Shown: piece after piece, positions 2,424-38,749 of the stretch
Numbering within the stretch: position 1 is the stretch's first letter
Layout: the number at the start of each line of letters is the position of its first letter
Origin: Spirochaetia bacterium
GTDB lineage: Bacteria > Spirochaetota > Spirochaetia > UBA9216
Direction of reading: 5' to 3'
DNA: 64,000 nucleotides
NCBI GenBank assembly: GCA_963675665.1
Contig: OY776510.1
Coordinates: 736,001-800,000 of the forward strand
The notes under the pieces: model-generated
Seen by the model: the letters and a program-made list of their open reading frames with translations, nothing else
Told to the model about the DNA's origin: nothing
Database searches by the model: none
Position numbers and translations under genes: made by a program

Positions 2424-2780
2424 TTAGTGATGGCTGCCATGATCGTGATCATGATGGTCACAGCCTACAGCCCCGCTCACCAGGGAACCCTTGCTCAATT
2501 CTTCAAGTACGGACTCGACTCCGCCGCTGATTGATCCCAATACCTTGATTCCGCGTATCTGCATGTTCTGAATAGCACCGGCGCCTATTCCGCCGACGAT
2601 TAAAGTTTCAACACCTTTTGAACCTAGAAAATCCGGAAGAACTGCGCAGTGTCCACCGGGATTATCCATGTACGCTATATCCGTTACTCCGTCCGCCTCT
2701 ACTGTTGCAAAGGTGAAGCCCTGACATTGACCAAAATGTTCCGACACCTGTCCGTTAAGTGTCGCTACTGCTACCTTCAT
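2424..2780 (-). CDS. NifB/NifX-family (FeMo-cofactor-biosynthesis-like) metal-cluster-binding protein with His-rich tail
   Basis: MKVAVAT...VSEHFGQC, IVGGIGAGA; C-terminal CDHHDHDHGSHH; AGGAG RBS. Confidence 0.88.
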   Translation of the reverse strand: MKVAVATLNGQVSEHFGQCQGFTFATVEADGVTDIAYMDNPGGHCAVLPDFLGSKGVETLIVGGIGAGAIQNMQIRGIKVLGSISGGVESVLEELSKGSLVSGAVGCDHHDHDHGSHH

Positions 2781-2786
2781 TCTTTT

Positions 2787-2943
2787 CTCCTATAAAAAGT
2801 TTCCGCATGGATGCGGGTTTTAAGAGGTGAAGTTGTAAAGCTAAACTGCGTTGCAGTTTAAACTGAGTTGCAGTTTAAACTGAGTTGCAGTTTTTGCTTT
2901 ACAACTTCAAAATGATAAAATTGCATGGAAGCAATTTTATCAT
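2787..2943. repeat. Three-hairpin intergenic element, copy 1
   Basis: CCGC-ATGGAT-GCGG (2803-2816); 14-bp inverted repeat 2828-2841/2896-2909 enclosing three 17-nt units; 13-bp stem ATGATAAAATTGC-ATGGAA-GCAATTTTATCAT (2912-2943). Confidence 0.9.
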
Positions 2944-3470
2944 TCCTTCTGTAATTTTCTGCAGTCGGGACATAATCCGTGAAACTGCACAATATGTCTT
3001 TTTATCTCAAATCCGTGTTTCTCGGACAGCACAGACTCAACCTTTCGGTAAAGTTCGCGTTCATCCTCGATAAAATCCGTATACCTGATAACCTTGTAAC
3101 ATCGCTCGCATACCAGCTGGTGGTGATGCTCGGCACGCTGATCCTCGGCGGCAATATATCTCGCCTTTCCTTCTCCGAAATTATATCTGTTGACAATGCC
3201 CATCTCATCAAGGAGGACCAGCGTCCTGTATACCGTAGCCAGTCCTATTGCCGGGTAATCCTCCCTGATTATCGAATATATCTCCTCTGCGCTCAGATAG
3301 CCGTCGGCATTCTCGAGAACACCGGCAACAAGCTGCCGTGGAATTGTCATTCTCATTCCCCGGTTCCGAATACCGCCCTCAAGCTCCATACAGCAAGGCT
3401 TGTGTCTTCCGGGCCGGCCCTGAAACTGATCACGGCCTTCAGCAGGTCTATTCATCAATGATTTCCACAA
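2940..3470 (-). CDS. fur: Fur-family transcriptional regulator (start probably ATG at 3455 or later)
   Basis: RMTIPRQ, IGLATVYRTL, HHHQLVCERC and GLCPDC motifs. Confidence 0.92.
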   Translation of the reverse strand: MWKSLMNRPAEGRDQFQGRPGRHKPCCMELEGGIRNRGMRMTIPRQLVAGVLENADGYLSAEEIYSIIREDYPAIGLATVYRTLVLLDEMGIVNRYNFGEGKARYIAAEDQRAEHHHQLVCERCYKVIRYTDFIEDERELYRKVESVLSEKHGFEIKRHIVQFHGLCPDCRKLQKE

Positions 3471-5011: not shown

Positions 5012-6049
5012 TTACTTGATTTTCTTTCTTTTCTTTCTGATAGACTTGTTGCCCCGTTTTACAGAGACAGTTTCAATATTATCATCGGTATAATCTTCTT
5101 CCGTCAATGTTCCGGCTGTTTGTCTTTTTCTGAAAAAATACAAGGCGAATCCTCCCGCCATCATTAAAGCACAAAGAATCTGCCCCGTAGAAAAATTAAG
5201 ATATGAGCTTAATAGCGCCGGTGTTTCTCCGGTGTCTCCGAATTGAAATATAAATCCCATATCCCGGTCGGGTTCCCGAAAATACTCAATGATAAACCGA
5301 ACCGCTCCGTATCCGATAAGGTAAAAGCTTATAACTGCACCATGAAATTTTTTCCTGTTCCTGATAATAAACCACAGGAAAAGCCACAATACAATTCCTT
5401 CAAAAAAAGCCTCGTACAATTGCGACGGATGCCTGGGCAGATTTATAAACCCGCTTTGCGGCAGGTTTATGCCGGCAGCATTTGCAACCTCCTGTACCCA
5501 GCCTGCGGAAACCGGAAACCTCTCGGCATTAGGAAAAACTATTCCCCACGGCCGCGTTGTGACACGCCCCCAAAGTTCGCCATTAATGAAGTTTCCGAGA
5601 CGGCCGAAGGTATAACCCAGAGGAATTCCCGCGGCGACTATATCAGCAAAAAGAAACCAGTTTTTCTTTTTAATTCGACAGAAAATTATTGTCGCTACCA
5701 CCGCACCGATTACTCCGCCGTGGTAACTCATTCCCTGAAGACCGGTAAATCTCCCGCCCCGGAACGGCCAGAAGATCATCCACGGCCTGGAAATGTAATA
5801 GTGTGTCGGATCATAAATGGTCGTGGCAAGCAGTCTGGCGCCGAGAAGCAGTCCGATTATACCCCAAAAGAAACAGTTAAGGATATCATCCTCACTGAAT
5901 CCTGTTTTTAGCCCGCGGGCCTGCTTCATCATTAAAAAATATGCTATTGAAAAAGCTATCAGATACATCAGTCCGTACCATCTGACAGGCAACCCAGGGA
6001 TTATCTCCGGCCTCAACCACTGGGGGAAATTAATATACGCAAGCATCAT
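5012..6049 (-). CDS. lgt: Prolipoprotein diacylglyceryl transferase
   Basis: VRWYGLMY, GMSYHGG, GRLGNFINGELWGR, HPSQLYEA and EYFREPD motifs; GGAGG RBS before ATG 6049/6046. Confidence 0.96.
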   Translation of the reverse strand: MMLAYINFPQWLRPEIIPGLPVRWYGLMYLIAFSIAYFLMMKQARGLKTGFSEDDILNCFFWGIIGLLLGARLLATTIYDPTHYYISRPWMIFWPFRGGRFTGLQGMSYHGGVIGAVVATIIFCRIKKKNWFLFADIVAAGIPLGYTFGRLGNFINGELWGRVTTRPWGIVFPNAERFPVSAGWVQEVANAAGINLPQSGFINLPRHPSQLYEAFFEGIVLWLFLWFIIRNRKKFHGAVISFYLIGYGAVRFIIEYFREPDRDMGFIFQFGDTGETPALLSSYLNFSTGQILCALMMAGGFALYFFRKRQTAGTLTEEDYTDDNIETVSVKRGNKSIRKKRKKIK

Positions 6050-6186
6050 TCCTCCTATAAAAGAGTCCCGCATGGATGCGGGTTATTACGGGAAGAAGTT
6101 TGTGAAACAAATCTGCTTTGCAGATTTGTTTTTCAAACTTCAAGATAAAATTGAACATGGATGTTCAATTTTATCATTCCTCCTAT
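6045..6186. repeat. Three-hairpin intergenic element, copy 2, flanked by a 14-bp direct repeat
   Basis: CCCGC-ATGGAT-GCGGG (6067-6082); central hairpin 6095-6141; GATAAAATTGAAC-ATGGAT-GTTCAATTTTATC (6144-6175); ATCATTCCTCCTAT at 6045-6058 and 6173-6186. Confidence 0.9.
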
Positions 6187-9143
6187 TCGGTTTTCCCGGA
6201 ATTATCCAACGGGTGTTTTTCAAGCACACCCGTTTCCTGATTAAAAATAATTTTCACTGCTTTTTCCTGTTTTGTTATTTCAAGACTTCTTCCGTGGCTC
6301 TCAAATAAAACCCCCGGAAAAACATCGCCCCTAATCACAATATCACCGGGATAATGTTGTTCAAAACGTTCTTTAAGAGCAAAAACCCGCATACTGCGTT
6401 TTCCCATTATCTTCATCAGCTTGACTTTCTCCATACGAAGATTCGTCAGGTTCTTTTTTTCACCGTCTTTCTCAGCCTGTCTCATCTCGGGCTCTATCTT
6501 TACCAGGCGGGTTTTAATCTTATTAATTTCATTTTCCTCCGTCTCGATCCGGTCCGAAACAAGATAATCCTGACCAAAAGAGACTTCGGTACGGCTGCCG
6601 GAAAGCGACCCTATATTCTGGGCTTCAATCCCTTCCCGGGCCTGAATTCTGCCGCCGACAAGATAACCTTTCTCAGACAACAGTTTTAGTTTGCCGTTGC
6701 ATTTTACCTTGCATCCGAATATGGCATTCTTAACCGTGATATTACCGACAGCCAGCAGTGTGGCCCGTTCGGCAAATGCAAGCTGAATCGAGTCCTTGGC
6801 TCTCAGGATAGCTTTGCCGCCGCCCTTGATTCCCTGTGCTACGGCAATTGATTTTTCCGATGAAAGCAGGGACATCTCGGAATTCATTCCGATGGCTATA
6901 TTTCCGCCGGATATTACAAAAAACCCGTTTTTTACATTTCCTTTTACGTTAACGTCACCGCCGAATTTGATGTTTCCTGTATTAAAATCGACATCGCCCT
7001 TGATGAACAGGCTTTCCTGCACCTCAAGCCTGTTGTTTTCAAAAAGAACCCTGCCTGATTTGTCCGCGATCAAAAAAGTGTCGCCGTTTTCGTCTTTTTC
7101 TTCCCTGATATTGGCGCCTACATCAATATTCAACGGCGTAAGCTTTTTGGCAGCTATGGTTTTACCGCAGACATCCCAACCGTCTTCCGATTCACCTTCC
7201 ACTACGCGGATTTCAGCAATGATATCTCCTGCTTTTACGGATGTCATCTTGTTCTGTTTGCGGTAATTCGCTTTCCCGCTCTTGTCTATTGTAACAGCTT
7301 CACCGCCGGCAAGTTCTATCAGCCATTTCAATTTTGCCTCACCGGCATTCTTCGGAGCCTTCCCCATGGCAATCAGTGCCCCGGAAACACTTTCTCCGGA
7401 TCTCGCTTTCTCTACTGCCGATCTTACAGCATCGGCATTCAGTCCGTTTTTTATTCCGGCTTCATCGATAAGGCGGTTTGCTTCCTCCAGCGACGTCGGC
7501 GCACCCGTTCCCACAGCTGGTTCAGCCGATATTACGGCGGTCATTTTGTCATCCGAAAGTTTGATTTTAAAAGACGAGTCGGCATGCTCGCGTATCCGGA
7601 AGACCTTTTCCCCGTCTCTGTCAAAACGTTCAAGCAGACCTTTTGTCACCGATATTATTATTCCGCCTGCAATTTTTACGTTTTCCAGCGCCTTGTAAGA
7701 GTCCTGTTCTTCCGCATCAGGCTCAATACCGGCTCCGTATACGTCCGTACCCTTTTTACCTTCGTTTACCGGTAAAGACGCAATCTGCTGTTCCGCCTGC
7801 ACAAGAGCAAGTGCTGATGCTTCTTCGGGAGGATACTCAACGGCAGATTCAATTGCGGAAAGGTAATCTTCGGAGACGCCGGGTATACGCTTTTTAATTT
7901 CATCTGCAGTCGAATCGGGAAGAAATTCCAGCTCATAAATCAGCTCGCCTGCCTCTCCGCTTTCAGCTGCAGTTCCCTCGCAAAGAGGAATTACCGTATC
8001 AACTTCCGGTCCGCGGTTAAATTCAAGGATGAGCTCCTGAATCTTCTTCAGATCCATCTGTTTAAGACCGCTCGCCTTTATTGCCGCTCCTACCTGCTTC
8101 AGTACAAGAGGCTTGCCGTTTCCCCGGCCTTTATGCATTACAAGATCAGCCTTGAGTTTGTCCTCGCTGATTTTAAACTCAAAAAAGCCGTCGTCATCCA
8201 GGCTGATCACCGCTCTTTCAAGGACCTTGCCTGTCTCTATCGCCGTATTGATTATTTCATTCAGCCGAACTTCGGAAACAAGCGTTTCAACCTCACAGCC
8301 GAGCATTTTTGCCCTCTCAAAGATTTCCGCCGGATCCGGGGGGCTTGATTCGGGACCGCCCGGGTTGAATTTCAGAAGGCAGGTATTTTTATCTTTCGAA
8401 AGCTCAAGAGACCAGTCGTGGGTTCTAAACGGAAAAACCTCCGCCCAATTGCTGCCTCGGCGAAGAATTCCGGGCTCTGTAGCAATAAGAGCAGCGCCCC
8501 GGGATTCTATTCCTCTTCCGAGATAAAACTCATCCTCATCCGTTAACGGAGATACGGGCTTTCCATAAACATCCTTGCCCGGCTTGCCGGTCTGCCCCGG
8601 TTTTATATCAGCTATTTTCTCTCCCGTCTCCACCAGGCCGGCGGCAATAACATCCGGAATTATTTCAACCCGGATCCTGTTTTCACGTTTTACGTTTTCT
8701 ACAACCGTTTCAGTCTTTTCTTTCCCGAAAGGCAGCAGGCCTTTCTTTTTTACGACTTTTTCCTGTTTTATCTTTTCAATTTCTGTTTTATATATTTCCG
8801 GAGTCGGCGTATTTTCAAGAACGCGGAGTATATCATCCTTCAGTTCATCGGGAATCACAGCTTCTGCCCATTTGTACTCTTCCGGTTCCGACGGTTCGGC
8901 AGGGTCACCTTCGGCTATGGTAATATTAAGTTCTTCGGAAGACAGAAAGAGCGATTCCAGATCTTTTTCAAATTTCGATCTGTCGAACCCGTAAACAATC
9001 TGCTTTTCAGAAACGAGTTGAGTAAACGCCTGAATATCCCATTCAGATCCTTCTTCATCAGGAATAAAATGCAGGACCGCAAGCATACCTTCATCATCAG
9101 CATCAATATTGGCCCGACCTTTTATTTTCTTTTCTTCCGCCAT
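6183..9143 (-). CDS. fapA: FapA (DUF342) family protein, long form
   Basis: IKGDVDFNTGNIKFGGDVNVKGNV beta-solenoid; repeated xKxSxDKxxA N-terminal modules; C-terminal coiled coil and VFPGV. Confidence 0.85.
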   Translation of the reverse strand: MAEEKKIKGRANIDADDEGMLAVLHFIPDEEGSEWDIQAFTQLVSEKQIVYGFDRSKFEKDLESLFLSSEELNITIAEGDPAEPSEPEEYKWAEAVIPDELKDDILRVLENTPTPEIYKTEIEKIKQEKVVKKKGLLPFGKEKTETVVENVKRENRIRVEIIPDVIAAGLVETGEKIADIKPGQTGKPGKDVYGKPVSPLTDEDEFYLGRGIESRGAALIATEPGILRRGSNWAEVFPFRTHDWSLELSKDKNTCLLKFNPGGPESSPPDPAEIFERAKMLGCEVETLVSEVRLNEIINTAIETGKVLERAVISLDDDGFFEFKISEDKLKADLVMHKGRGNGKPLVLKQVGAAIKASGLKQMDLKKIQELILEFNRGPEVDTVIPLCEGTAAESGEAGELIYELEFLPDSTADEIKKRIPGVSEDYLSAIESAVEYPPEEASALALVQAEQQIASLPVNEGKKGTDVYGAGIEPDAEEQDSYKALENVKIAGGIIISVTKGLLERFDRDGEKVFRIREHADSSFKIKLSDDKMTAVISAEPAVGTGAPTSLEEANRLIDEAGIKNGLNADAVRSAVEKARSGESVSGALIAMGKAPKNAGEAKLKWLIELAGGEAVTIDKSGKANYRKQNKMTSVKAGDIIAEIRVVEGESEDGWDVCGKTIAAKKLTPLNIDVGANIREEKDENGDTFLIADKSGRVLFENNRLEVQESLFIKGDVDFNTGNIKFGGDVNVKGNVKNGFFVISGGNIAIGMNSEMSLLSSEKSIAVAQGIKGGGKAILRAKDSIQLAFAERATLLAVGNITVKNAIFGCKVKCNGKLKLLSEKGYLVGGRIQAREGIEAQNIGSLSGSRTEVSFGQDYLVSDRIETEENEINKIKTRLVKIEPEMRQAEKDGEKKNLTNLRMEKVKLMKIMGKRSMRVFALKERFEQHYPGDIVIRGDVFPGVLFESHGRSLEITKQEKAVKIIFNQETGVLEKHPLDNSGKTE

Positions 9144-16874: not shown

Positions 16875-16951
16875 TTTGTTATTGCTCTTCTTAAATAAAA
16901 TCTTTTTTACATCTTAAATTCTGTTTTTATAAAATAATTTTACCCTGTAAT

Positions 16952-16987
16952 AAAAAAGCGGGCAAGAAAAAAATTTTCCGCCCGCTT
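16952..16987 (-). terminator. Rho-independent terminator after ybjQ
   Basis: AAGCGGGC...GCCCGCTT stem with T6 tract on the minus strand. Confidence 0.7.
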
Positions 16988-17008
16988 CTTTAGTTTAATA
17001 TTACTTGT

Positions 17009-17338
17009 TTATTCGAATTCAACAGCTGTTCCGTAAGCCAGAAACTCGGCGGCGCCCTGCATCATGCTGGTTGTTGTAAAGCGAAGCCCCACTACAGCAT
17101 CCGCCCCCAGGGATTCGGCATCTTCCATCAGCCTGTCAATCGCCTGTTCCCGGGACTCGGCCATCATCTTTGTATAATCGACGATTTCGCCGCCTACCAT
17201 GTTTTTAAATCCGGCCATAATATCCTTTCCCAGATGTCTCGCCCTGATCGTATTACCGCGCGCCAGTCCAAGCACCTTTTTTATATTTTTTCCGGGCACT
17301 GTTTCCGTTGTCACGATAATCATTCCATTATCACTCAT
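17009..17338 (-). CDS. ybjQ: YbjQ/UPF0145 (putative heavy-metal-binding) family protein
   Basis: IVTTETVPG, MVGGEI, SREQAIDRL, LGADAVVGLRF and AYGTAV. Confidence 0.92.
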   Translation of the reverse strand: MSDNGMIIVTTETVPGKNIKKVLGLARGNTIRARHLGKDIMAGFKNMVGGEIVDYTKMMAESREQAIDRLMEDAESLGADAVVGLRFTTTSMMQGAAEFLAYGTAVEFE

Positions 17339-17769
17339 TTCATTACCCCCTTGTATTTGTCGGTTTTGCTTTCCCTGATTCTGTCCGACAAAGCGGTTAT
17401 AAATAAAACTATAACAGAAACAACAGCAGCTGTAACTATAAATTTCACAAACATCGCTTCCCCGGAATCGGTGAACAGCGTGTAGAGCGCATAGCCGGCA
17501 AGCATCAGCCAGGAGACAATCATCAGGATAAAACCGAAACCTCCGGCAAACCGCCTTCGTCTGCTTCGGTAAAGAGTTTCAAACCATTCTTCTTCCGGAG
17601 CTGCTGTTTTAATGCCCGCAAGCTTTTTCCGCAACTTAAGCAGTCCGATATATTCATCCCTGCAGCGATAGCAGGATTCAAGATGCTCCATCAACGGCGC
17701 AATTTTTTCCTCTTCAAGTTCATCATCTATAAGCATCTGACAATTTATTTTTGCTTCTTCACAATTCAT
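17335..17769 (-). CDS. Zinc-binding (zf-HC2/ZAS) membrane anti-sigma factor
   Basis: MNCEE...HLESCYRC plus two C-terminal TM helices; GGAGG RBS before ATG 17769. Confidence 0.88.
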   Translation of the reverse strand: MNCEEAKINCQMLIDDELEEEKIAPLMEHLESCYRCRDEYIGLLKLRKKLAGIKTAAPEEEWFETLYRSRRRRFAGGFGFILMIVSWLMLAGYALYTLFTDSGEAMFVKFIVTAAVVSVIVLFITALSDRIRESKTDKYKGVMK

Positions 17770-17774
17770 GATTA

Positions 17775-17884
17775 CCTCCAATAAAAACTCTTGCCATGGA
17801 CGGCAAGTTATTGAGAGCGAAGTTTGAGAAGCTTTGCTTTACAAACTTCAAAATGATAAAAACACATGGATGTAATTTTATCAT
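17775..17884. repeat. Three-hairpin intergenic element, copy 3
   Basis: CTTGCC-ATGGAC-GGCAAG (17790-17807); GAAGTTTG...GCTTTGC...CAAACTTC (17819-17849); ATGATAAAA-ACAC-ATGGAT-GTAA-TTTTATCAT (17853-17884). Confidence 0.88.
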
Positions 17885-18384
17885 TCACCCTCCAGTCTGT
17901 TTTTCAGCATTTTCCGCGCATTGAATAATCTTGACATGACTGTGCCTCTCGGAATATCGAGAATTTCAGCCATTTCATCATATGAACATTCATCATAATG
18001 CTTCAGTATGATAATCTCCCTGAATTTCTCGGGCAAACTTAATACGGCAGCCTTTATTTCCTCTCTCGACTCACGCTGCACCACCTCGTTCTCAACAGAA
18101 TCCTCTCCCGGATGCAGTTCCGGAAATTCGAGGCCCGCTTCGGACCCGGATTTTCTTTTCCAGCGGTTGATACACAAATTTTTTGTTATTCTGAACAGCC
18201 ATGGAAATACGGGACGGGCGGGATCAATATTTTTAAAGTTTTTCCAGGCCCTCAGAAAAACCTCCTGTGTGAGATCTGCAGCCTCTTCACTGCTGCCGAG
18301 ATACCTGAAGGCTGTATAGTATACACGCTTGTCATAGGCTTTAAACATCGCGGAAAATGCTTCGCTTTCTTTCATACTATTCAT
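17881..18384 (-). CDS. ECF sigma factor (RpoE/SigW-like)
   Basis: EAADLTQEVFLRAW, FPWLFRITKNLC and SYDEMAEILDIPRGTVMSRL. Confidence 0.93.
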   Translation of the reverse strand: MNSMKESEAFSAMFKAYDKRVYYTAFRYLGSSEEAADLTQEVFLRAWKNFKNIDPARPVFPWLFRITKNLCINRWKRKSGSEAGLEFPELHPGEDSVENEVVQRESREEIKAAVLSLPEKFREIIILKHYDECSYDEMAEILDIPRGTVMSRLFNARKMLKNRLEGE

Positions 18385-18466: not shown

Positions 18467-19411
18467 ATGGGAAAAATCTTTTTGCCGCCCCTAAAGTTTT
18501 TGATCTTCTTTCTTGTAAGCGCTGCAATTCTGGTATTTCTTTCAATGCTGTACAGCTGGGAACTTCTGGTCTCTTTATCACTCGAACAAAAGAATAATCT
18601 GCTTTTATTCCTGCCCGCGGCGGCATCCGGTATTGTTTTCCCTGCGGCCTCTTCCGGGCTGCTTTTCTCTGTTTTTGACTACAGAAAAGAGGCTATAAAA
18701 CCTGTTTCTGCCGCAATTACAGCTGCCGCAATATTTCTGGTTCTGTATTTCGGATTCACCTTCACATCTTCAATGATTTCTTCCAACGATATCGCAGAAT
18801 TTCAACCTTTTAACGAAAGAAAGATCCATATGACTGAAAACAGCATTATCTATACAGACGAATGCGATTCGGACATTGTTTCGGGAATCATTATCCGAAA
18901 TCACGACGGCAGTCTTCCCGGGTTTAAATACTACGACAGAGCTGTCTTCAGCAGTACCCCCGGAGCAATACTGCAGTTTGACGATGCCCGCTCAATGGAT
19001 ATAGTTCCGGCAAACCCTGTATTTTACGATTCTTTTCGGCGAAGCGGAATGATCGGCAATTATATCGATGATATCCGGTTTATGAACGAAAGCCTGAAAA
19101 CAGCAGCATTGAACGGCGGCGGAGGTTTTATTCTTCTTGCAGCCGTTTTTTCAGCTTTCCTGATGATTGGCCTTCTTTTTCGTGGAGCATCATCCTGGCC
19201 GCTGTTTGATTTTGCGCTTATATTGTTCTTTCATCGCCTTGTTTATTATCTGTTCAGGCTATTTTCAAGCGAATCCGCATTCATAGCAGATACATTTTTC
19301 GGAGGAAAGCAGGAACTTAACATTCCGCTGTTTACAATTTCAGGACTTACGCTGATTCTTTTTCTCTGCGGTGTTCTTATTAAAACGACCTCGAAAAGGA
19401 AAGTCCGATGA
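18467..19411 (+). CDS. Membrane protein with central periplasmic domain, unknown function
   Basis: About 3 N-terminal and 3 C-terminal TM segments; ATGA overlap with next gene; upstream TTGCAT-17-TAAAAT. Confidence 0.7.
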   Translation: MGKIFLPPLKFLIFFLVSAAILVFLSMLYSWELLVSLSLEQKNNLLLFLPAAASGIVFPAASSGLLFSVFDYRKEAIKPVSAAITAAAIFLVLYFGFTFTSSMISSNDIAEFQPFNERKIHMTENSIIYTDECDSDIVSGIIIRNHDGSLPGFKYYDRAVFSSTPGAILQFDDARSMDIVPANPVFYDSFRRSGMIGNYIDDIRFMNESLKTAALNGGGGFILLAAVFSAFLMIGLLFRGASSWPLFDFALILFFHRLVYYLFRLFSSESAFIADTFFGGKQELNIPLFTISGLTLILFLCGVLIKTTSKRKVR

Positions 19412-24436: not shown

Positions 24437-25816
24437 ATGAAAATAATGAAATTCGGCGGCAGCTCCGTAAAGGATGCTGTTCACATCAGAAACGTCGTAT
24501 CGATAATCAGGGCCGAATCAGAAAAAACACAAACCGCGGTTGTCCTTTCCGCCATGAAAGGAATTACAGACGAACTTATTACCTGCGCGGATCTTGCTGA
24601 AAAGGACGATGAAAAATTCATTAGGGCTGTAGAAGCCATAGCCGAAAAGGAAAAATCTACATTCATTGATCTTGTCGGAAAAGAAAAAGAGAAAGACGCT
24701 TTCAGCAATCTTGAGGGCATGCTCAAAGATCTTTACGAGATTCTTCTCGGGGTGAAGATGGTTAAGGAATGTTCTCCGCGAAGCCTCGATCTTATAGTCA
24801 GCTTCGGTGAAAGAATGAATAATACGGTGGCGGCGGCTTATATGCGAAGCATCGGGATCGATGCGGAATATGTTGATACGCGAAACCTTATTCTGACCGA
24901 CAGTACCTACGGATCAGCCAAGGTTAATTACCGGGAAAGCTATAAACGGATACGGGAACATCTTGAAGGTATAAGGGGCATCCCCATGATAACCGGTTTT
25001 ATCGGGGCCAATGAAGACGGTGTTACAACCACGCTTGGGCGAAACGGATCAGACTTCACCGCATCGATAATTGCAGCCGCCACGGACAGCGAAGTTGTTG
25101 AGATCTGGACCGATGTGGACGGCGTTCTCAGCGCTGATCCGAGAAGCGTAAAAAATGCTTATGTCATTCCGGAAATCAGCTACCAGGAAGCTTCAGAGCT
25201 TTCGTATTTCGGAGCCGAGGTTATTCATCCGTATACCATGGTACCGGCCGTCGATCGAGGTATTCCCATACTGATTAAAAATACCCTGAAGCCGGCCGCT
25301 CCGGGAACAGTAATTGCCCGGGATATAACACCGCATGAGCGCCCAATTACAGGCATTGCCTCGATAAATAACATCTCGCTCATCAACGTTGAAGGAAACG
25401 GAATGATAGGCACTCCCGGTATTGCTTCGAAGGTTTTCGGAGCGCTCGCCGACGCCGGAATCAGTGTTATCATGATTTCTCAGGCATCAAGCGAACACAG
25501 CATCTGTCTTGTTTTCAGATCGGCGCAGGCTGAACGCGCACTTGAGACTCTGAACCGCGAACTTGAAACCGAGCTTAAAACAAAACGTATCGAACGTTTT
25601 GCTATCCGTGACGATTTGGAAATAATATCGGTAATAGGCGATAATATGGTCGGCACTCCCGGTATTGCGGGAAAGATCTTCAGCGCGCTCGGAGATGCCG
25701 GCATCAGCATCCTTGCAATTGCACAGGGTTCAAGCGAACGCAGTATTTCGTTTGTGATTGAAAAGAAATACAGTGAAAAGGCGCTTAATACGGTCCATGA
25801 TGCCTTTCTTTCCTGA
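24437..25816 (+). CDS. Aspartate kinase with two ACT domains (ThrA-like N-terminal half, no homoserine dehydrogenase domain)
   Basis: MKFGGSSV, TTTLGRNGSDFTAS, IWTDVDG, MISQASSEHSI and IAQGSSERSIS. Confidence 0.93.
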   Translation: MKIMKFGGSSVKDAVHIRNVVSIIRAESEKTQTAVVLSAMKGITDELITCADLAEKDDEKFIRAVEAIAEKEKSTFIDLVGKEKEKDAFSNLEGMLKDLYEILLGVKMVKECSPRSLDLIVSFGERMNNTVAAAYMRSIGIDAEYVDTRNLILTDSTYGSAKVNYRESYKRIREHLEGIRGIPMITGFIGANEDGVTTTLGRNGSDFTASIIAAATDSEVVEIWTDVDGVLSADPRSVKNAYVIPEISYQEASELSYFGAEVIHPYTMVPAVDRGIPILIKNTLKPAAPGTVIARDITPHERPITGIASINNISLINVEGNGMIGTPGIASKVFGALADAGISVIMISQASSEHSICLVFRSAQAERALETLNRELETELKTKRIERFAIRDDLEIISVIGDNMVGTPGIAGKIFSALGDAGISILAIAQGSSERSISFVIEKKYSEKALNTVHDAFLS

Positions 25817-30533: not shown

Positions 30534-32297
30534 ATGAAAAGAATTTGCATAATATTAATATATATTGTCTCATTTTTTTATTATTCCTGTACCCAGTTCA
30601 TTCCTGAAGCGCCTATGGTAACATGTATAACACAATCGAATGACACAACACCAACATGGACCTGGAATATTCCGGCAGGAACGATTGCTTTTCGATACTC
30701 CTTTGATGAAAATGAATCCAACTGGACAGAAGTTGGAATTGAAACAACCAATTTTACAGTCAAAGATTGTTTAATTGATGGAGAATACAGCCTGTACGTA
30801 CAATGCAAAAACATTTTTGACCAGTGGTCATATAGCGGGTTTGATTCAATAACAGTATCCGAGAATAATTTTCTTACATCAATAGAATTTAATGAAACAC
30901 GATGCGGAATTGATTCAGAATCTGCTACAATTTTGTTTCCTTTCTGTGAATTAGACTATGAAGAAATTAATATATCATATAAACCTGATTCTTTAGGTCT
31001 GATTATCGATGGTAATGAAATAAGAGACGGCGACTCTTTCTTTTTAAATGATACAAATATTGATTCTGAAATTATAGTCAGCACGATTGACAGCAAGAAC
31101 AATATTCTTGAATACAGATTATTATTCACAAAACTTCCTGTAGTTCAATTCACTACCGAGAATCTAATAATGGATGCGTCAGATGTGTTTTCAAATTTTA
31201 CTATCTCTTCCTCTTCACTATTCTCCGAGACACATCAAAACCAATCTTTTTCTTCTGATTCTTTTATTCAGATCAGAGGAGCATCTTCACAATATGCGCC
31301 AAAAAAATCATACGCCTTCTGTTTAGCCGATGAAAATAATGTAATCTCCGCATCACTACTTGATATGCAGCCAGATACTAAATGGATTTTAGATGCATTG
31401 TATTATGATCTTTCTAAATGCAGAAATAAGGGATCACTGGATTTATGGTTTTCTTTAACTGATTTTCCTGATATTGATGAGGAAAAGAATAACAATAAAA
31501 TTGAAAGCTGCTATGTTGAACTGTTTTTAAATAATGAATATAAAGGATTATACGTATTAACTCAGCATATTGATGCAGAAATTCTAAAACTTTCTGAAAG
31601 AAACAATGATGATTCTGGTGCATTATATAAAACTATTGCCCATACCGGTGATTACAATCCAACGCAATTTGAGAACTATCGGGAATATGACCCCAATAGT
31701 CTATATTGGGACGGTTTTGAACAATCTTTTCCTGAAAATCCTTACTGGACGCCTATCTATGAATTGGTTAAATTTGTGTCTGATTCGGAAGATAATAATT
31801 TTAAATATGGTATTAAATATAAAATTGATATAGACAATGCAATTAATTATTTATTGTTTACAAATCTCATCCTAGGTATTGATAATCTCAATAAAAACAT
31901 TTTCTATATTAAACCTGATGAAAGTGAAAAACTTTTTTTAGCACCCTGGGACATGGATCGTTCCTGGGGAAGAAATGTCGAGCAAGCGCTTCCGGTTGAT
32001 TACGGAGTATGGTTGACAAACACCTTATTTGACAGATTAATTTCAACTGAATCAGATGATTTTAAAAATAAATTGAAAAGAAGATGGGAGTCCTTAAGAA
32101 GCACTACTTTTTCTGAGAATAATTTAATAAATATATTCCAGAACAATATTAATCTTCTTATAGATTCCGGAGCAGCAGAACGTGACGCAGAAACGTGGCC
32201 GGAACTCCAAACCAATCTCTCAGATGAGTTAACATTTATCGAATCATGGATTAGCGCCCATTTGATATATCTAGATAACTATATAAATGAACTTTGA
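30534..32297 (+). CDS. CotH-family kinase lipoprotein
   Basis: Lipobox YYSC; IRGASS...KKSY, VELFLNNEYKGLYVLTQ, DNLNKNIFY and PWDMDRSWG. Confidence 0.9.
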   Translation: MKRICIILIYIVSFFYYSCTQFIPEAPMVTCITQSNDTTPTWTWNIPAGTIAFRYSFDENESNWTEVGIETTNFTVKDCLIDGEYSLYVQCKNIFDQWSYSGFDSITVSENNFLTSIEFNETRCGIDSESATILFPFCELDYEEINISYKPDSLGLIIDGNEIRDGDSFFLNDTNIDSEIIVSTIDSKNNILEYRLLFTKLPVVQFTTENLIMDASDVFSNFTISSSSLFSETHQNQSFSSDSFIQIRGASSQYAPKKSYAFCLADENNVISASLLDMQPDTKWILDALYYDLSKCRNKGSLDLWFSLTDFPDIDEEKNNNKIESCYVELFLNNEYKGLYVLTQHIDAEILKLSERNNDDSGALYKTIAHTGDYNPTQFENYREYDPNSLYWDGFEQSFPENPYWTPIYELVKFVSDSEDNNFKYGIKYKIDIDNAINYLLFTNLILGIDNLNKNIFYIKPDESEKLFLAPWDMDRSWGRNVEQALPVDYGVWLTNTLFDRLISTESDDFKNKLKRRWESLRSTTFSENNLINIFQNNINLLIDSGAAERDAETWPELQTNLSDELTFIESWISAHLIYLDNYINEL

Positions 32298-32324
32298 GGG
32301 TCCCGATAAAAGAATATCAAGAAC

Positions 32325-34004
32325 TCATTGTAACTGAGTAATCAACTCCGTTCTTCGTTGAATCAAATATTGAAGTCTGTCGTCATAATAGTTGGTAAAC
32401 TGAATCCAGGAAACCTCATCCTCCACTGAAATATTATGCTGAATATCACATATTTCTTTTCTTTTTAAGAAAAATGATAATTCATATTCTGTATTTTGAA
32501 AAACAGCATTTAGATAATCTTCCGTTAAAATATTTTCCAATAAATTCAAAAAAATGCTTTTATATCTATTATATAAAAAGGAGTCCTCTTCAATTGCCTT
32601 ATCCAATATCATTTCATTGCAATAAACCAAACTTCCGGGTGTAAAATTTCCCCAATGCGGAGGCAAAAAAAGATCATCATAATCCCATGCTGAAATTAAA
32701 AAATATGGTTTATCATTTTCAATAATTCCAGGTAAACCATAAAAAAATATTTCATCTGAATAATCACCGTTCTGAACGAAAGTATTAAATGCTATCCAGC
32801 ACATATAACCATCTATATCCATTCTCTTGGAAAGTTCATCATATAATTCAGAACCAGAATAGCTATTTGATAAATCATAAATACTATTATATGTTTCAAT
32901 GTAATTTGATAAATCAATTTGTGCTGAATCGTAATAATATTTTAAATCATATTCGGGGTAATATCTTCTTCTTATTACAAACTCAACTTCCGGTTTTTTT
33001 CTTATAATCCCATCCTGAGTTTTTTCAACCAACATGTACATGCCTAAAGACTGATAATTAAACTCAACTTCAAATAATTTAAATGATGGGACAAACAACC
33101 CAAGCTCACTCAAAATTGTAAATGCCATATGATGGTTCAGATACCCGGTATCAGCATCCATAGATATAAGCAAGAAAGAATCTGCATATACATCTGAAAA
33201 CAGATTTGTATAGTCTCCGGATGGCAATCGAATTTCATAACTCTTACGATTGTACCCTAAAGAACTCGCACCATGAAGATTGATTTCAGCATCCTCAAAT
33301 ACATCATCCCTAAACTCAATATTTATTTCATGCTCGGCCGTATAATCATAACCCACAGGATTTGTTAATGATTCAACAGCATCCTGATCAGCAAATATTC
33401 TAATCTGCCTGTTGTCTTCAATTAATACTTTAACTATATAGTTTTTATATTCATTTAATTCATTTATTGTTCGAACATAAACTATATTTTCTCCGATCTC
33501 CAAATCTTGCGTAGGACGTATAATTTTATTCGAAGCACATTGCCATATATTAAATAATGAATTTATCTTATATTCAATCTCCAAATTGGTTTCAGAAAAA
33601 TCTAATATTGGTCGGTTATTGACTGTAACCAACATCAAGTCTCCCAATTCATTTTTTTCTTCATCAAATGTATTTATATTTATATTCTTAATTAATTCTA
33701 ATCCGTTTTTATTATATTTTACTTCAAAATTATAACTGCCATTTGCAGAAACCGGCGTTAAGATCAAATTGCTATCTGAATCCAGATCCTGCCAATCTTC
33801 ACTATTTATACGGAATTGTAAATCATCAGATAAAATAGTATTATCCCATTGATAAATAATTTCCTGTGTAACAGGTGAATAAAATCCAGATATAATCAGT
33901 TCATCGTTATTGTCCAGACTATGTTCTATTTTAAATAAATTACATGAAGAAAATAGTATCAAAATCAGAAGCCATCCAGGTTTTTTAAAATGACAGTATT
34001 TCAT
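32325..34004 (-). CDS. Second CotH-family kinase lipoprotein (variant catalytic loop)
   Basis: Lipobox FSSC; HGASS...RKSY, LGMYMLVEK, NGDYSDE and AWDYDDLF. Confidence 0.85.
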   Translation of the reverse strand: MKYCHFKKPGWLLILILFSSCNLFKIEHSLDNNDELIISGFYSPVTQEIIYQWDNTILSDDLQFRINSEDWQDLDSDSNLILTPVSANGSYNFEVKYNKNGLELIKNININTFDEEKNELGDLMLVTVNNRPILDFSETNLEIEYKINSLFNIWQCASNKIIRPTQDLEIGENIVYVRTINELNEYKNYIVKVLIEDNRQIRIFADQDAVESLTNPVGYDYTAEHEINIEFRDDVFEDAEINLHGASSLGYNRKSYEIRLPSGDYTNLFSDVYADSFLLISMDADTGYLNHHMAFTILSELGLFVPSFKLFEVEFNYQSLGMYMLVEKTQDGIIRKKPEVEFVIRRRYYPEYDLKYYYDSAQIDLSNYIETYNSIYDLSNSYSGSELYDELSKRMDIDGYMCWIAFNTFVQNGDYSDEIFFYGLPGIIENDKPYFLISAWDYDDLFLPPHWGNFTPGSLVYCNEMILDKAIEEDSFLYNRYKSIFLNLLENILTEDYLNAVFQNTEYELSFFLKRKEICDIQHNISVEDEVSWIQFTNYYDDRLQYLIQRRTELITQLQ

Positions 34005-34005
34005 C

Positions 34006-35823
34006 TTAATCGATCAATCCCATACTCAGACCGTCGCTTCCGGCATTATACCCAATACTATCACTTGTTAAACGATATCTGGAATCCATATTCGGTTCAC
34101 CGATAATATTATTTTGAAAAAGCTCATTGTAAGTTGATAGTAATGAATTATTTACACTAATTCTCATAGACGGATTCCAGTTGAATTGATGGAAATCCCA
34201 TATATCTTTTAAATTCTCAATTAATATACTGTTTTCAACAATCAAGCTTCCGCCGGAACCTTCCCAGGAATAATTATCTCCGTGTCGTATCCCGATTTCA
34301 TTTTCCATTATAAGGCAATGATCAATATCAACTCTATGCTCAACATTACTGTAACCCAATTCGATTCCCTGGCCACAATTCCTTATCACAGTATTATATA
34401 TAGTGTGCTGAATAACATCATTATCAGTACTAGTCAGAGCTAAACCCTCATGAAAACATGACTCTATCCAACAATTATTAATTGTTAAGTCGCCCATATT
34501 TCCACTGTCTATTCCATCATCCTTACAATTAATAATAACTGTGTTATTCAGTGTCGCGGTTGCTGATGCTGCAAAGTATAAAGCGTCATTATCGTTATCT
34601 ATATAATTCCTGCTGCTATCTGGAAAATCAAGCAAATAACTATTTTCTATTAACACATCAGAAGCGTTAAACTGACCGGCTGACTGTGCCCTTTGAATAA
34701 GTGAATTTTGAATAGTTACAGATGCTCCTGTTCCTCCAAAAGCCTGTGTTTTTGTATTAATAATATAGGAATTATTCAGTAATATTGTAGATAAATCCTG
34801 AAAAAAGAAAAGAGGCTGTCCCCCGGCGTGACCCCAGCTGTAATCTTTGGAATTCGCTCCACTATTTATAAAAATCGCTCCTGTTGCCGTAAAATCTGTA
34901 GTTGTGTCGCTAAAAATAAATCCGCCCCAATATTCTTCTTTCGAAGCAGAGGTGAAAACAACCGGGTTCGCGATTGTTCCATTAATAATAATATTGCCGT
35001 CACATATGAAATCAGCATTGTTGCTAACTTTTATAATTGTGCCTTCTTCTATTGTCAGAGTTTCCCCCGCAGGTATCTGCACATCACTTAAGATTGAAAT
35101 AAAACTAAATGAATTCCAACTTTGGGTTTCAATGAGACCTGCTTTTTCAATCCAGACAGGATTCTCGGTAAATGTAATTGCTTTCAGGTCGCTTGTTTCT
35201 GAGTCAATACTAACATCAAAAGATCCTACAGAAGTATTATGATCGTATAGAATAACAGAACCTACTCCTCTTTGTATTTCCAGTAATTCTGAGCTAAAAG
35301 AAAAGTCGGCATAATTATAAACAGGAATAATAATACTCGACTCTTTTATATTTACAATAATCGGAAGTGGCAAATTTACCGGATATGATTTAGGAGAAAT
35401 TACTTCGATTAAAGGCGTATTATAATCTGAAATTACCGGTATCGAATAATTTTTCAAATCAGGACAAGATAATCCCCAATCTGCCCATCCTCTCACCGGA
35501 TGTAATATTATAAATTGAACTTTTTCATAGTATTTCTGCCCATTAAGCAGATGTTCATAAAATATTTCCACTTCATAATAACCGGGTAAAGCAACCCGGT
35601 AAGAAGTATCTGGTTCTATGGATTCTCCATTAAGATAAATTTTATATGTATACTCAGCATTTGTATTTATTTTGAATAATACAGGCTCCCAGTATGAAAC
35701 CTTGTTTTCTACACCGGTCAATAGCGGCAAGACTTCTTCTTCATCCAATACTGACGACTGGTCAGAACAAGAATAAGAAAGTAAAATCAAGATAAAACAA
35801 ATTATGTATCTATAACGAAACAC
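34006..35823 (-). CDS. Lipoprotein with right-handed parallel beta-helix repeats
   Basis: Lipobox SYSC; GTIANPVVFTS, WGG, DNDNDALY, DDGID and repeated IxNs.i motifs. Confidence 0.8.
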   Translation of the reverse strand: MFRYRYIICFILILLSYSCSDQSSVLDEEEVLPLLTGVENKVSYWEPVLFKINTNAEYTYKIYLNGESIEPDTSYRVALPGYYEVEIFYEHLLNGQKYYEKVQFIILHPVRGWADWGLSCPDLKNYSIPVISDYNTPLIEVISPKSYPVNLPLPIIVNIKESSIIIPVYNYADFSFSSELLEIQRGVGSVILYDHNTSVGSFDVSIDSETSDLKAITFTENPVWIEKAGLIETQSWNSFSFISILSDVQIPAGETLTIEEGTIIKVSNNADFICDGNIIINGTIANPVVFTSASKEEYWGGFIFSDTTTDFTATGAIFINSGANSKDYSWGHAGGQPLFFFQDLSTILLNNSYIINTKTQAFGGTGASVTIQNSLIQRAQSAGQFNASDVLIENSYLLDFPDSSRNYIDNDNDALYFAASATATLNNTVIINCKDDGIDSGNMGDLTINNCWIESCFHEGLALTSTDNDVIQHTIYNTVIRNCGQGIELGYSNVEHRVDIDHCLIMENEIGIRHGDNYSWEGSGGSLIVENSILIENLKDIWDFHQFNWNPSMRISVNNSLLSTYNELFQNNIIGEPNMDSRYRLTSDSIGYNAGSDGLSMGLID

Positions 35824-36811
35824 AAATCTCCCCTGTAAGACTATTTACTATTGTGTTTAGTCTATATTCATAATTATACTGCATTTTTGTAGTTAAAAAC
35901 TTATTTAATTCAAAGGAAACACCTCCTCCGGTATTAATAAATGACTCATCAGATACTTTTGTTACACTATCGTCATAAAACTCAAATGTACAACAAATAG
36001 AAAATTTATTATATCTATATGAGAGTAAAGCCCCTCCGCCCCTCTTCCAATAAAAATAATCGTTCATAACGCTGGCAAAAATCTTCGATTCAAAGTATTC
36101 CAAAAGAAAACTAATGTCTTGAGAGTTATTTATTCCAAAAAAGAAATCTGTATATAATCCATGAGTAAAATTCTGCATTGGGATTTCCTTGAAAAATATG
36201 GAATCATATATATTATATCCAATTTTATACTTTGAATTCTTAAAAACCTTATCTTGAATGAAGATATTACCAACTAAAGAAAATGCTGTTTCGGCGCCAC
36301 CATCCAATAGCTCCTGATTATTAAATATTCCAATTTTATAACCTAATAAATTAAATACTTTCTTGCCATAGATTGAAACCCCAATATCTCGTCCCAGACA
36401 AAACTCATCTGTTATATTATAATGATTAATATATGTTCGCTCGTTATCCCCAAGAGAATATTCCTCGCCGAATGGTGTTTTATATTTTCCAATCTTAATC
36501 GAATGGTTTTTATTAATTTTTTTATCCAGATATATATCTTTTATTTTAAAAAAATAATCTTCATCATTTGACGAATTTGAAAAATCAATTTCGACATTTG
36601 CACTATAGCCGTCCTGAAATTTTAATTCTAATCCGGGTTGAAGTTCGCCCAGATGGAATTTTCCAAAGCCGTCGGAATCATAATACGAATATACTCCCGC
36701 CATATCAAATTTAAATTCCAATTCAAACTCTTCACTCTTATAAAAATTAATATCGGCAAAAAGAATATGACTGCAATTGATAATAAGCAGAATAAATATA
36801 AGTTTTCTCAA
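35810..36811 (-). CDS. Outer-membrane beta-barrel porin resembling phosphate-selective OprO/OprP
   Basis: Signal peptide; IKDIYLD, KIGKYKTPFGEE, GRDIGVSIYG and YKIGIFN. Confidence 0.7.
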   Translation of the reverse strand: MRKLIFILLIINCSHILFADINFYKSEEFELEFKFDMAGVYSYYDSDGFGKFHLGELQPGLELKFQDGYSANVEIDFSNSSNDEDYFFKIKDIYLDKKINKNHSIKIGKYKTPFGEEYSLGDNERTYINHYNITDEFCLGRDIGVSIYGKKVFNLLGYKIGIFNNQELLDGGAETAFSLVGNIFIQDKVFKNSKYKIGYNIYDSIFFKEIPMQNFTHGLYTDFFFGINNSQDISFLLEYFESKIFASVMNDYFYWKRGGGALLSYRYNKFSICCTFEFYDDSVTKVSDESFINTGGGVSFELNKFLTTKMQYNYEYRLNTIVNSLTGEICVSL

Positions 36812-37314
36812 GACTCATTACTCCTTCCCATCGTATGCTCCTCAAAATATTTATATATTCCGCCTCCATCTATTTCCAATCCATATGATCCGTTATAGGT
36901 ATCAGGTATATCATCAATACGATCTATTACATAATCTTTGCCACTATCTGTGTATATTAATATTATTGATTCTCCCATTTTTAATTTAAAATCAGTGCTT
37001 CCATTTTCTTCTTTTCCATCACAGATGACAACTTCAAAAGATTTTCCGGGAATTATGCTTCCTGAAGGGAATGTCCATTTTTCTCCGAGCAGATCATCAT
37101 TTAAAGATATCCTTGAAAGGTCAATTGCTGTTTCTGAGGAGTTATACAACTCTATCCAGTCATCCTCATCTGTGTTATTATTCGAATATTCATTTATAAA
37201 TAGTACTTTCTGAGATTGTAAGAATGAAAATTCTTTTTCCTCATAAAAAAAGGAACATCCTGATATAATAAAAACAAAAAATAATAGACTGTATTTTTTC
37301 AGATAAAACTCCAT
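36808..37314 (-). CDS. Lamin-tail-domain (LTD) lipoprotein
   Basis: Lipobox ISGC; LFINEY, DWIELYN, IDLS...LND, WTFPSGS and TDFKL. Confidence 0.88.
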   Translation of the reverse strand: MEFYLKKYSLLFFVFIISGCSFFYEEKEFSFLQSQKVLFINEYSNNNTDEDDWIELYNSSETAIDLSRISLNDDLLGEKWTFPSGSIIPGKSFEVVICDGKEENGSTDFKLKMGESIILIYTDSGKDYVIDRIDDIPDTYNGSYGLEIDGGGIYKYFEEHTMGRSNES

Positions 37315-37322
37315 TTTATTTA

Positions 37323-37958
37323 TTATAGCTCCTCCTCCGGAATATAAAAAATTCTTATCTTTGCCGTGTCCTGAAGAAAATCGATTTGATTAATCTCAAC
37401 TCTCGAAATTTCAAGTCCGGTTCGCGCAGATAGATCAGCGATTAATTCATCACGTCTTTCCGGAACAATGAGTTCAATTTTTTCATATAATATTATTTTT
37501 GTATAAATATTATTGAAAATTTTATGTTCAAGAAAAGCTGTAGAGGCAATGATAGTAATATTTGCAAGAAGCAATTCAGTATGACTGACGCTTTTATTTG
37601 ATAATGCATTAATCACACCAACACCAATAATAATAAACATATACGTCATTTCTTTTATTGCAATTTGAGAAGTACGATACCTTAATATCCCGAAAATCGC
37701 AAATAACCCTACCGCGAAACCCATTTCAACATCTACACTTTCAAGAAGAAAACATAATAAAAAGACAACTGTGCTTAAGAGGAAGAAAGTGAAAACATAA
37801 TTCTTATGTTTTTGTAATTCTACTCGCTGTCTTTTTTTTCTATAATAAATTGAGCAAATTATGAAAGTTACGATTAAATGAAATACTAATCTGACAATCA
37901 GTTCGAAAAAATCATCAGGATTAATTATTTTAATCCCTAAAAACCTGAGATTATCCAA
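37323..37958 (-). CDS. DUF4956-family membrane protein
   Basis: GFAVGLFAIFGILRYRT, KEMTYMF and ELIADLSARTG; about 4 TM plus soluble C-terminal domain. Confidence 0.88.
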   Translation of the reverse strand: MDNLRFLGIKIINPDDFFELIVRLVFHLIVTFIICSIYYRKKRQRVELQKHKNYVFTFFLLSTVVFLLCFLLESVDVEMGFAVGLFAIFGILRYRTSQIAIKEMTYMFIIIGVGVINALSNKSVSHTELLLANITIIASTAFLEHKIFNNIYTKIILYEKIELIVPERRDELIADLSARTGLEISRVEINQIDFLQDTAKIRIFYIPEEEL

Positions 37959-38724
37959 AAATTTCCTCCATTCCCTGAATTAATTTTATAATTTGTCTGT
38001 TTCGTTTTTTAAACCTGTTAGATTTTAAAAATGATGAATTTAGTATATTCTGTCCTAAACAATATTTACTTATCTTAAAAGGAAATATTCCTTCACTTTT
38101 CATATAGCGATAAAAATCGGTTTTTTGTCCTTTTGATTTAACTTCAATAACAGCCAAATTATTCAATTTAACTTTATTCCCTTTCATATGATAAGCAAGG
38201 TTATAATCAATTGTAACTCTTTCGTTAGAGTCGAAGTTTACTAAAGTAAACCGACTAAACTCAATATTAAACTGTTTTTCCAAATCTTCCGGCAGATATG
38301 GTGTTTTTTCCGTAATGAATTTCTCAATTATTTCAGAATTATCATTCGCAGAATTTAATTCTAACCTCTTCTTATCTACTCTTCCCACATTAGATTTAAA
38401 TTTTGATTCAATGAAACAGAGATCTGAATCCAGATACCTTCTTATACGAATTTTATACCTGTTCAATTTTTTATTATGATGTTTCAGATACATTTCACAA
38501 TCAGAAGTATCATAGTAAGTTGTAGAGTATCTAAAAACTCTTTTTTCATCAATTTCCAGTATTCTATATTGATTAATAAATCTTTTTAGCAGTTTTGGTA
38601 ATTTATCTTGACTAATTATAAATTTAGTATCAAATCTTTTCAGCAGAACTGCTGATTCTATTTCAATTAATGAAACAGGAGTAAAATCATTAAGAAATGA
38701 AATTTCATCACTGAGCAATTCCAT
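37951..38724 (-). CDS. VTC (polyphosphate polymerase / triphosphate-tunnel) domain protein
   Basis: KRFDTKF, YYDT, RYKIRIRRY, FIESK, ERVTID, IEVK and SKYC motifs. Confidence 0.9.
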   Translation of the reverse strand: MELLSDEISFLNDFTPVSLIEIESAVLLKRFDTKFIISQDKLPKLLKRFINQYRILEIDEKRVFRYSTTYYDTSDCEMYLKHHNKKLNRYKIRIRRYLDSDLCFIESKFKSNVGRVDKKRLELNSANDNSEIIEKFITEKTPYLPEDLEKQFNIEFSRFTLVNFDSNERVTIDYNLAYHMKGNKVKLNNLAVIEVKSKGQKTDFYRYMKSEGIFPFKISKYCLGQNILNSSFLKSNRFKKRNRQIIKLIQGMEEIFG

Positions 38725-38749
38725 AATTAACTCCAGAATTCATGTATAT

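Follow-up and report, generated by a model that had tools for sequence, protein, structure and literature searches.

A three-hairpin repeat related to TD-2 and TD-1 as a probable mobile element at Shine–Dalgarno/start junctions of spirochaete operons

We analysed a stretch of 64,000 nucleotides from a Spirochaetia bacterium (contig OY776510.1 of assembly GCA_963675665.1, positions 736,001 to 800,000; hereafter the window) and found three copies of a non-coding repeat of 106–155 nt that folds into three hairpins. All three lie in sense orientation between co-oriented genes, at the start codon of the downstream gene, and one of them, between fapA and lgt, is bracketed by an exact 14-bp direct repeat containing a stop codon, a Shine–Dalgarno sequence and an ATG. 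Sequence comparison leads us to read this direct repeat as the mark of insertion by a diverged relative of the TD-2/TD-1 motifs that is mobile at Shine–Dalgarno/start junctions, with a probability of roughly 0.6. The element is best understood as a non-autonomous mobile repeat that enters junctions between ribosome-binding site and start codon and leaves both reading frames intact.

The direct repeat at fapA/lgt (ATAGGAGGAATGAT in minus-strand sense) has two exact occurrences, at 6173–6186 and 6045–6058, both of which had been reported in an initial annotation made from the sequence alone. When up to two mismatches were allowed, five matches were found in the window (1.03 expected), a number reached in none of 100 shuffles. 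The upstream occurrence (minus strand) holds the fapA stop TAG (6185–6183), GGAGG, an ATG and an in-frame TGA (6176–6174); the downstream occurrence (minus strand) holds the lgt Shine–Dalgarno GGAGG, an ATG (6049–6047) and a second ATG (6046–6044) and, going by its match to the native junction of a relative, is the working ribosome-binding site and start of lgt. Between the two occurrences lies the body of the copy in question, copy 2 (114 nt; 6059–6172, minus strand), with fapA upstream (6183–9143, minus strand; 986 amino acids with FapA and FapA_N domains) and lgt, encoding prolipoprotein diacylglyceryl transferase, downstream (5012–6049, minus strand). Its three hairpins, all on the minus strand, are located at 6144–6175 (hairpin 1, which extends into the upstream occurrence of the repeat), 6095–6141 (hairpin 2) and 6067–6082 (hairpin 3, followed by ACTCTTTT). 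The 114 nt have a sense minimum free energy (MFE) of −56.5 kcal/mol (z = −8.7), and none of 200 shuffles was equally stable. A minus-strand ATG at 6073, inside hairpin 3, is in frame with lgt and opens a spurious open reading frame (ORF) of 353 amino acids (MRDSFIGG-MMLAY…), an example of how such elements can mislead the annotation of start codons.

Alignment of the orthologous junctions in relatives had been set beforehand as a test of the insertion proposal. Using FapA as the query against genome contigs, we identified two syntenic loci (FapA identity of 67–68%), one from 'Ca. Thalassospirochaeta sargassi' (L001) and one from Spirochaeta sp. UBA9216 (L002), and both have empty, tight sites, as predicted. 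fapA and lgt are 14 nt apart in L001 and overlap by 4 nt (ATGA) in L002; the fur gene overlaps a nifX-like gene by 26 nt in each of the two loci; and an ECF-type sigma factor gene and a putative anti-sigma gene overlap by 11 nt in L001 (the L002 locus does not extend there). Aligned with these sites, the element stands out as a clean insertion at every covered junction. The compact fapA–lgt junction expected after removal of the element and one repeat has a near-identical real counterpart in the ATGA overlap of L002 (GATAAGGAGGAATGATGCTTGC). The two loci gave no match to the TD motifs (Rfam, E ≤ 10) and none to our own covariance model of the element (best score, 10.9 bits; E = 1).

The other two copies occupy the two remaining junctions. 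Copy 1 (155 nt; 2792–2946, minus strand) is located between a gene for a fur-family regulator with a short C-terminal tail (…CPDCRKLQKE; 2940–3470, minus strand) and a gene with a Nitro_FeMo-Co (NifX-like) domain (2424–2780, minus strand). Its hairpin 1 (2910–2945, minus strand) encloses the fur stop TGA (2942–2940), hairpin 2 (2828–2909, minus strand) carries a tandem repeat of 17 nt (3.1 units; 2842–2893) at its apex, and hairpin 3 (2803–2816, minus strand) precedes the terminal TTTTTAT. Immediately 3′ of the copy, the NifX-like gene has its ribosome-binding site and start (AGGAGAAAAGAATG; 2778–2791, minus strand), this ribosome-binding site being similar to those at the native junctions of L001 and L002. 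Copy 3 (106 nt; 17781–17886, minus strand), which also ends in TTTTTAT, separates the ECF-type sigma factor gene (17881–18384, minus strand; tail …RLEGE) from the putative anti-sigma factor gene (17335–17769, minus strand), whose product matches zf-HC2 below threshold (16.8 bits; cut-off, 22.2). Hairpin 1 of this copy (17851–17886, minus strand) encloses the sigma stop TGA (17883–17881), hairpins 2 and 3 are at 17818–17850 and 17790–17807 (both minus strand), and the ribosome-binding site and start of the anti-sigma gene (TGGAGGTAATCATG; 17767–17780, minus strand) follow immediately 3′. The 17-nt apical unit in the middle hairpin of copy 1 reads TAAACTGAGTTGCAGTT on the plus strand; such tandem units imply that the middle stem of the element can grow by tandem duplication, and the length of the middle hairpin differs among copies.

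Several features are common to all three copies. The 5′ end GAATGATAAAATT is invariant in the alignment and reads GAATGA followed by TAAAATT, with the TGA of GAATGA either terminating the upstream ORF or standing in frame with it. At the 3′ end, an invariant TTTTAT is followed by (A/T)GGAG and then by the downstream start, so that the ATG lies 9–14 nt after TTTTAT. The two outer hairpins share the apical motif CATCCATG, and the hairpins are AT-rich with the exception of hairpin 3. Of the 37 predicted pairs, 8 show compensatory changes, and 4 of these fall among the six pairs of hairpin 3—the stem sequences diverge and the pairing is kept. Searches of the window with blastn, nhmmer and our own covariance model (filters off) found no further copies (best non-self score, 13.2 bits; E = 0.5); a weak nhmmer match at 19272–19321 was dropped as a candidate, as it lies inside an ORF and has no hairpins. 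Copy 2 had no match in a plasmid collection (blastn, distant mode).

The element is related to a known family. Copy 2 only just reaches the gathering score of the Rfam model TD-2 (RF03162; 49.2 bits against 48.7) at 6066–6179 on the plus strand, opposite to the genes, and copies 3 (44.6 bits; 17790–17889, plus strand) and 1 (34.3 bits) score below it. On the gene strand, TD-1 (RF03155) matches weakly (13.9 bits, E = 5.8; 6100–6181, minus strand) and falls short of its gathering score of 64.5. The model alignments and folds show the traits of TD-2, namely three hairpins of which the outer two have a conserved AUGGAU loop. Its most fitting classification is within the TD-2/TD-1 clan, as a divergent member with the behaviour of a junction-specific mobile repeat.

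What exactly is duplicated at the ends was assessed against a background of gene-end and unrelated gene-start pairs of the same window. The upstream and downstream flanks of copy 2 have a similarity score of 13, and the duplication is statistically solid in this copy only. A degenerate form of the repeat had been proposed around copies 1 and 3; the strings quoted for it are all present, but their similarity is no better than the generic likeness of ribosome-binding sites. The proposal that the element leaves or supplies a Shine–Dalgarno sequence at its 3′ end holds to the extent that one follows TTTTAT in 3/3 copies, with exact duplication in copy 2 only. The ends may be the result of a genuine target-site duplication, together with a strong preference for the target and with subsequent indels that brought the TGA into frame; alternatively, they may carry a stop and Shine–Dalgarno-like sequence of their own, with movement by copy-choice at Shine–Dalgarno microhomology.

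The latter possibility extends to a view in which there is no true target-site duplication at all: a stop-plus-Shine–Dalgarno cassette, with a unit running from (A)GGAGGAATGA… to …TTTTAT(A)GGAG, would spread by homology, moving between ribosome-binding sites through template switching or illegitimate recombination at Shine–Dalgarno microhomology, and the 14-bp identity at fapA/lgt would be a native junction that happens to match the element end. We consider this rather unlikely. GAATGATAAAATT is constant in the three copies despite differing native junctions, and GAATGA does not vary, although (T/G)CATGA is the native sequence downstream of copy 3 and in L001. The upstream flanks of copies 1 and 2 share 12 of their 14 positions (score 9, P = 0.007), the ribosome-binding sites downstream of copies 1 and 3 look native and resemble those of the relatives, and the reverse complement of the TD-2 consensus has, in our own reading of the alignment, a UGA in the equivalent hairpin's outer arm. 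The same view requires a coincidence of 12–14 nt, or a homology-guided choice of site, at fapA/lgt; our literature search found no such mechanism for any repeat family; and three copies are too few to fix the ends of the element.

We approached the direction of change through the C-terminal tails of Fur and sigma homologues, taking counts of tail types, not trees, as the proxy for polarity. Sigma tails of the form …(H/N/Y)E(L/M), the product of the 11-nt overlap, are present in 16 of 22 homologues (excluding one that is 98% identical to the protein of the window) and extend down to 66% identity, and the tail …LEGE, with its stop from GAATGA, is found only in the window and its 98%-identical relative. 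Among Fur homologues, a long …SSS… tail, which results from reading into the NifX-like gene as with the 26-nt overlap, occurs in 11 of 19, including the eight most similar; the Fur of the window is short (…RKLQKE). Both sets of tails suggest that the overlapping arrangement is ancestral and that the element is probably a gain at these junctions. Gain is favoured because of the tail counts and because three paralogous copies need insertions anyway. The sigma homologue P0080 (82% identity) ends in …LEGIIIGGKHEL, with five extra residues that a second GGAGG after an AT-rich stretch would encode; its tail may record two Shine–Dalgarno copies with a short remnant between them, the footprint of an element lost at this junction.

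The reverse polarity, with the element present ancestrally at these junctions and then removed from the relatives by a precise deletion between direct repeats, appears very improbable to us. Such a deletion would be feasible through the 14-bp repeat, the tail of P0080 can be read in its favour, and in 5/5 proteins compared L001 and L002 resemble one another more than either resembles the window, so that a single loss would cover both. It is opposed by the overlap-type tails in most sigma homologues and in the most similar Fur homologues, and by the three paralogous copies at unrelated junctions, which call for insertions whichever way these particular sites have changed.

Given that the fold is very stable in every copy (z from −4.6 to −8.7), the element might instead be a functional structured RNA, as opposed to selfish DNA, that tunes or uncouples the downstream genes of these operons, either as a cis-acting intercistronic regulator or stabilizer (TD-1-like, on the mRNA strand) or as an antisense small RNA (on the TD-2 strand). 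The Rfam classes of the two motifs (sRNA gene for TD-2, cis-regulatory for TD-1), the covariation and 5′ position reported for TD-1 in the 2007 description (PMC1950547) and the compensatory changes at some pairs are in keeping with this, as is the loop motif CATCCATG in both outer hairpins, which a single binding factor would predict. Hairpin 3 and its T-run were also flagged as terminator-like in 3/3 copies, but terminator-like sites in total (21) were no more frequent than in shuffles (22.7). The flanking genes are functionally unrelated (iron regulation, lipoprotein maturation and an ECF sigma pair), the same operons lack the element in relatives, and the 2007 authors themselves pointed out pair-breaking mutations (PMC1950547). 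Stability is alike on both strands, the folding energies of the three copies being −67.0, −49.6 and −33.5 kcal/mol in sense and −69.3, −52.1 and −30.1 kcal/mol in antisense, and assignment of a strand by folding energy was rejected for this reason. Sequestration of the Shine–Dalgarno as a general feature was likewise rejected: the predicted probability that positions −15 to −4 are unpaired is 0.54, 0.40 and 0.23 in the three copies, against 0.51 ± 0.20 at 24 other starts. All told, we regard a dedicated regulatory RNA as improbable.

No convincing promoter was seen in the copies, the single weak match (9 of 12) being at 6061–6032. In copies 1 and 2, an ORF that begins at the ATG of ATGA (MIKL…) meets a stop after 14 codons. 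Its counterpart in copy 3, which begins at the ATG of the ATGA of the sigma gene, continues across the full length of the element (17759–17884, minus strand; 41 codons) and stops 8 nt past the anti-sigma ATG, which is the position of the sigma stop in relatives. The 41-amino-acid read-through peptide had no candidate match in a protein collection.

Returning to the mobile repeat as the preferred explanation, we envisage DNA that would integrate at Shine–Dalgarno/start junctions within operons and duplicate the Shine–Dalgarno region, either by target-site duplication or by copy-choice at Shine–Dalgarno microhomology. With a stop at its 5′ edge and a ribosome-binding site after its 3′ edge, the element would leave both genes intact, and copies at such sites may persist because of this. 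In the operon, translational coupling of the overlap type would give way to a very stable structured spacer, whose short GC hairpin and T-run could attenuate transcription, and the downstream gene would then depend on de novo initiation at an ordinarily accessible Shine–Dalgarno. The initial annotation had called such insertion non-disruptive; both ORFs do survive, albeit with tails of Fur and sigma that are shorter than in homologues and without the overlap-type coupling. Its placing of the element at translational-coupling junctions agrees with the gene pairs of the relatives, which overlap or are 14 nt apart, and with the position of all copies at start codons, within the limit of three copies. 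Tight junctions are common in the window (a gap of ≤20 nt in 36 of 50 co-oriented gene pairs) and offer no free bases, so the survival of random insertions does not by itself explain why 3/3 copies lie there.

A number of observations weigh against this explanation. The copies in the window are only three. No transposase was found among the 62 window ORFs scanned, and inverted repeats at the element termini are 6 nt at most (ATAAAA/TTTTAT). Similarity between upstream and downstream flanks is not significant for copy 1 (score 7, P ≈ 0.09) or copy 3 (score 6, P ≈ 0.22), and the resemblance between copies 1 and 2 in their upstream flanks is easier to reconcile with sequence carried by the element, or with a strong preference for the target, than with simple target-site duplication. 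The mutual closeness of L001 and L002 means that the presence or absence of the DNA cannot alone polarize gain and loss. The trees of Fur and sigma homologues are mostly open at their inner branches (12 of 17 and 14 of 21, respectively), and because of this poor resolution the tail evidence is supportive, not conclusive. Finally, folding energies are similar on the two strands, so that any role at the RNA level could belong to either.

Elsewhere in the window, the GC content falls from 44–45% to 30–37% at 32000–64000, over a long run of sugar-nucleotide and glycosyltransferase genes, clustered on the minus strand, that looks like a surface-polysaccharide island, possibly acquired horizontally. 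At the edge of this low-GC region (30534–39421), two CotH kinase-family genes stand beside beta-helix, porin-like, lamin-tail-domain, DUF4956 and VTC-domain genes. The spacer between a YbjQ-like gene and a sigma-54 activator gene is conserved between the window (16875–17008) and L001 (2154–2285); it contains a GC hairpin with a T-run (GCGGGC…GCCCGC TTTTTT), and the two spacers match Termite-leu weakly (21.1 and 26.8 bits; gathering score, 51). A 110-nt direct repeat of 71% identity (25403–25512 and 25646–25755) corresponds to the two ACT domains of an aspartokinase-like gene.

TD-1 and TD-2 (clan CL00124) were described as Treponema denticola motifs by Weinberg et al. in 2007, with 28 and 36 instances, respectively, seen only in that species; in seven instances TD-1 overlaps TD-2 in reverse complement, with two hairpins in common, and TD-1 is mostly 5′ of genes and shows covariation, while pair-breaking mutations lowered the authors' confidence in a functional RNA (PMC1950547). 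Like TD-2, the element has three hairpins, of which the outer two carry an AUGGAU loop (read as AUCCAU on the opposite strand) and the middle one has a stem that varies in length; like both motifs, it is present in several copies in one genome, and the weak TD-1 match on the gene strand covers hairpins 1–2, as in the overlaps described in 2007. It differs in host, as the genomes nearest to the window, which has a GC content of 44%, are metagenome-assembled genomes (MAGs) of marine Spirochaetales, and in that copies 1 and 3 fall under the TD-2 gathering score. The account of TD-1 and TD-2 in the 2007 report treats them as candidate RNAs and, in the sections concerned with them, does not describe insertion at Shine–Dalgarno/start junctions, flanking duplications or empty sites (PMC1950547). 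A literature search on the motif names returned nothing beyond this report; the family is known, and, as far as our searches show, neither its insertion context nor empty sites nor a duplicated initiation signal have been described for it.

We tentatively extend the proposal to the family, in the knowledge that this wider claim is less secure than the one for the window: the TD-1 and TD-2 'RNA motifs' of spirochaetes could be a mobile-element family specialized for the ribosome-binding site, homing to Shine–Dalgarno/start junctions in operons, and not dedicated RNAs. The Shine–Dalgarno itself would be the target or the microhomology, the element bringing its own stop at one end and regenerating a Shine–Dalgarno at the other; overlapping coupled pairs would become uncoupled pairs with a structured, possibly attenuating spacer; and the sigma tail …LEGIIIGGKHEL could be a footprint of excision. 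This would provide a testable account of motifs that have been catalogued since 2007 with no known role, and the Shine–Dalgarno would be an unusual kind of target choice. Operon architecture would be altered by the removal of overlaps, the trimming of C-terminal tails and the addition of strong structure, with consequences for genome annotation (start-codon choice and spurious N-terminal extensions) and for models of operon evolution.

Among other repeat families, the element resembles MITEs (miniature inverted-repeat transposable elements), Correia/ERIC and IS200/IS605-derived elements in being small, non-coding, multi-copy, highly structured and co-transcribed with its neighbours, and it shares with MITE-type elements a flanking direct repeat, in copy 2. 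It departs from them in its minimal terminal inverted repeats and in having three separate hairpins rather than one long one, and the fixed-length target-site duplication of MITEs may have a counterpart only in the exact 14 bp of copy 2, copies 1 and 3 not exceeding background. Fourteen base pairs is long for a target-site duplication, and elements of the IS200/IS605 type make none. RAYT-associated REP/BIME repeats are characterized by a short GC-rich imperfect palindrome with a conserved 5′ tetranucleotide and by an associated RAYT gene; the element does not fit this description, its hairpins other than hairpin 3 being AT-rich, and the window yielded no Y1 transposase domain. Conserved MITEs are abundant in Spirochaetes genomes (Leptospira, Sediminispirochaeta and Treponema) according to a census (PMC11602168).

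The closest functional analogues appear to be the mycobacterial MIRUs (interspersed repetitive units) and the Neisseria REP2 repeats. REP2 and the Borrelia IR-A/IR-B repeats are described as dispersed repeats of 120–150 bp without terminal inverted repeats (PMC3184786), and the Shine–Dalgarno after a conserved TTTTAT in 3/3 copies may be a point of likeness. REP2 and IR repeats are reported to have their own promoter and to stand at the heads of transcription units, whereas the copies described here show no convincing promoter, lie inside operons and, through their 5′ end, supply the upstream gene with a stop. MIRUs (Supply et al. 1997, cited in PMC12548453) are presented there as short, apparently mobile sequences at start codons in operons that preserve flanking expression. 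Like them, the element is found between co-oriented operon genes at the start codon in each of its copies and, in copy 3 only, has an internal ORF whose start and stop overlap the flanking stop and start. The sequences are unrelated; the relay ORF of MIRUs is coupled at −4, whereas the internal ORF here ends early in copies 1 and 2; and MIRUs form tandem arrays, whereas here hairpins dominate the element, which as a unit shows no tandem repetition. If our interpretation is correct, the element would join MIRUs, to which it is unrelated, as a second case of a repeat surviving through its fit to the stop/Shine–Dalgarno/start grammar of translation junctions.

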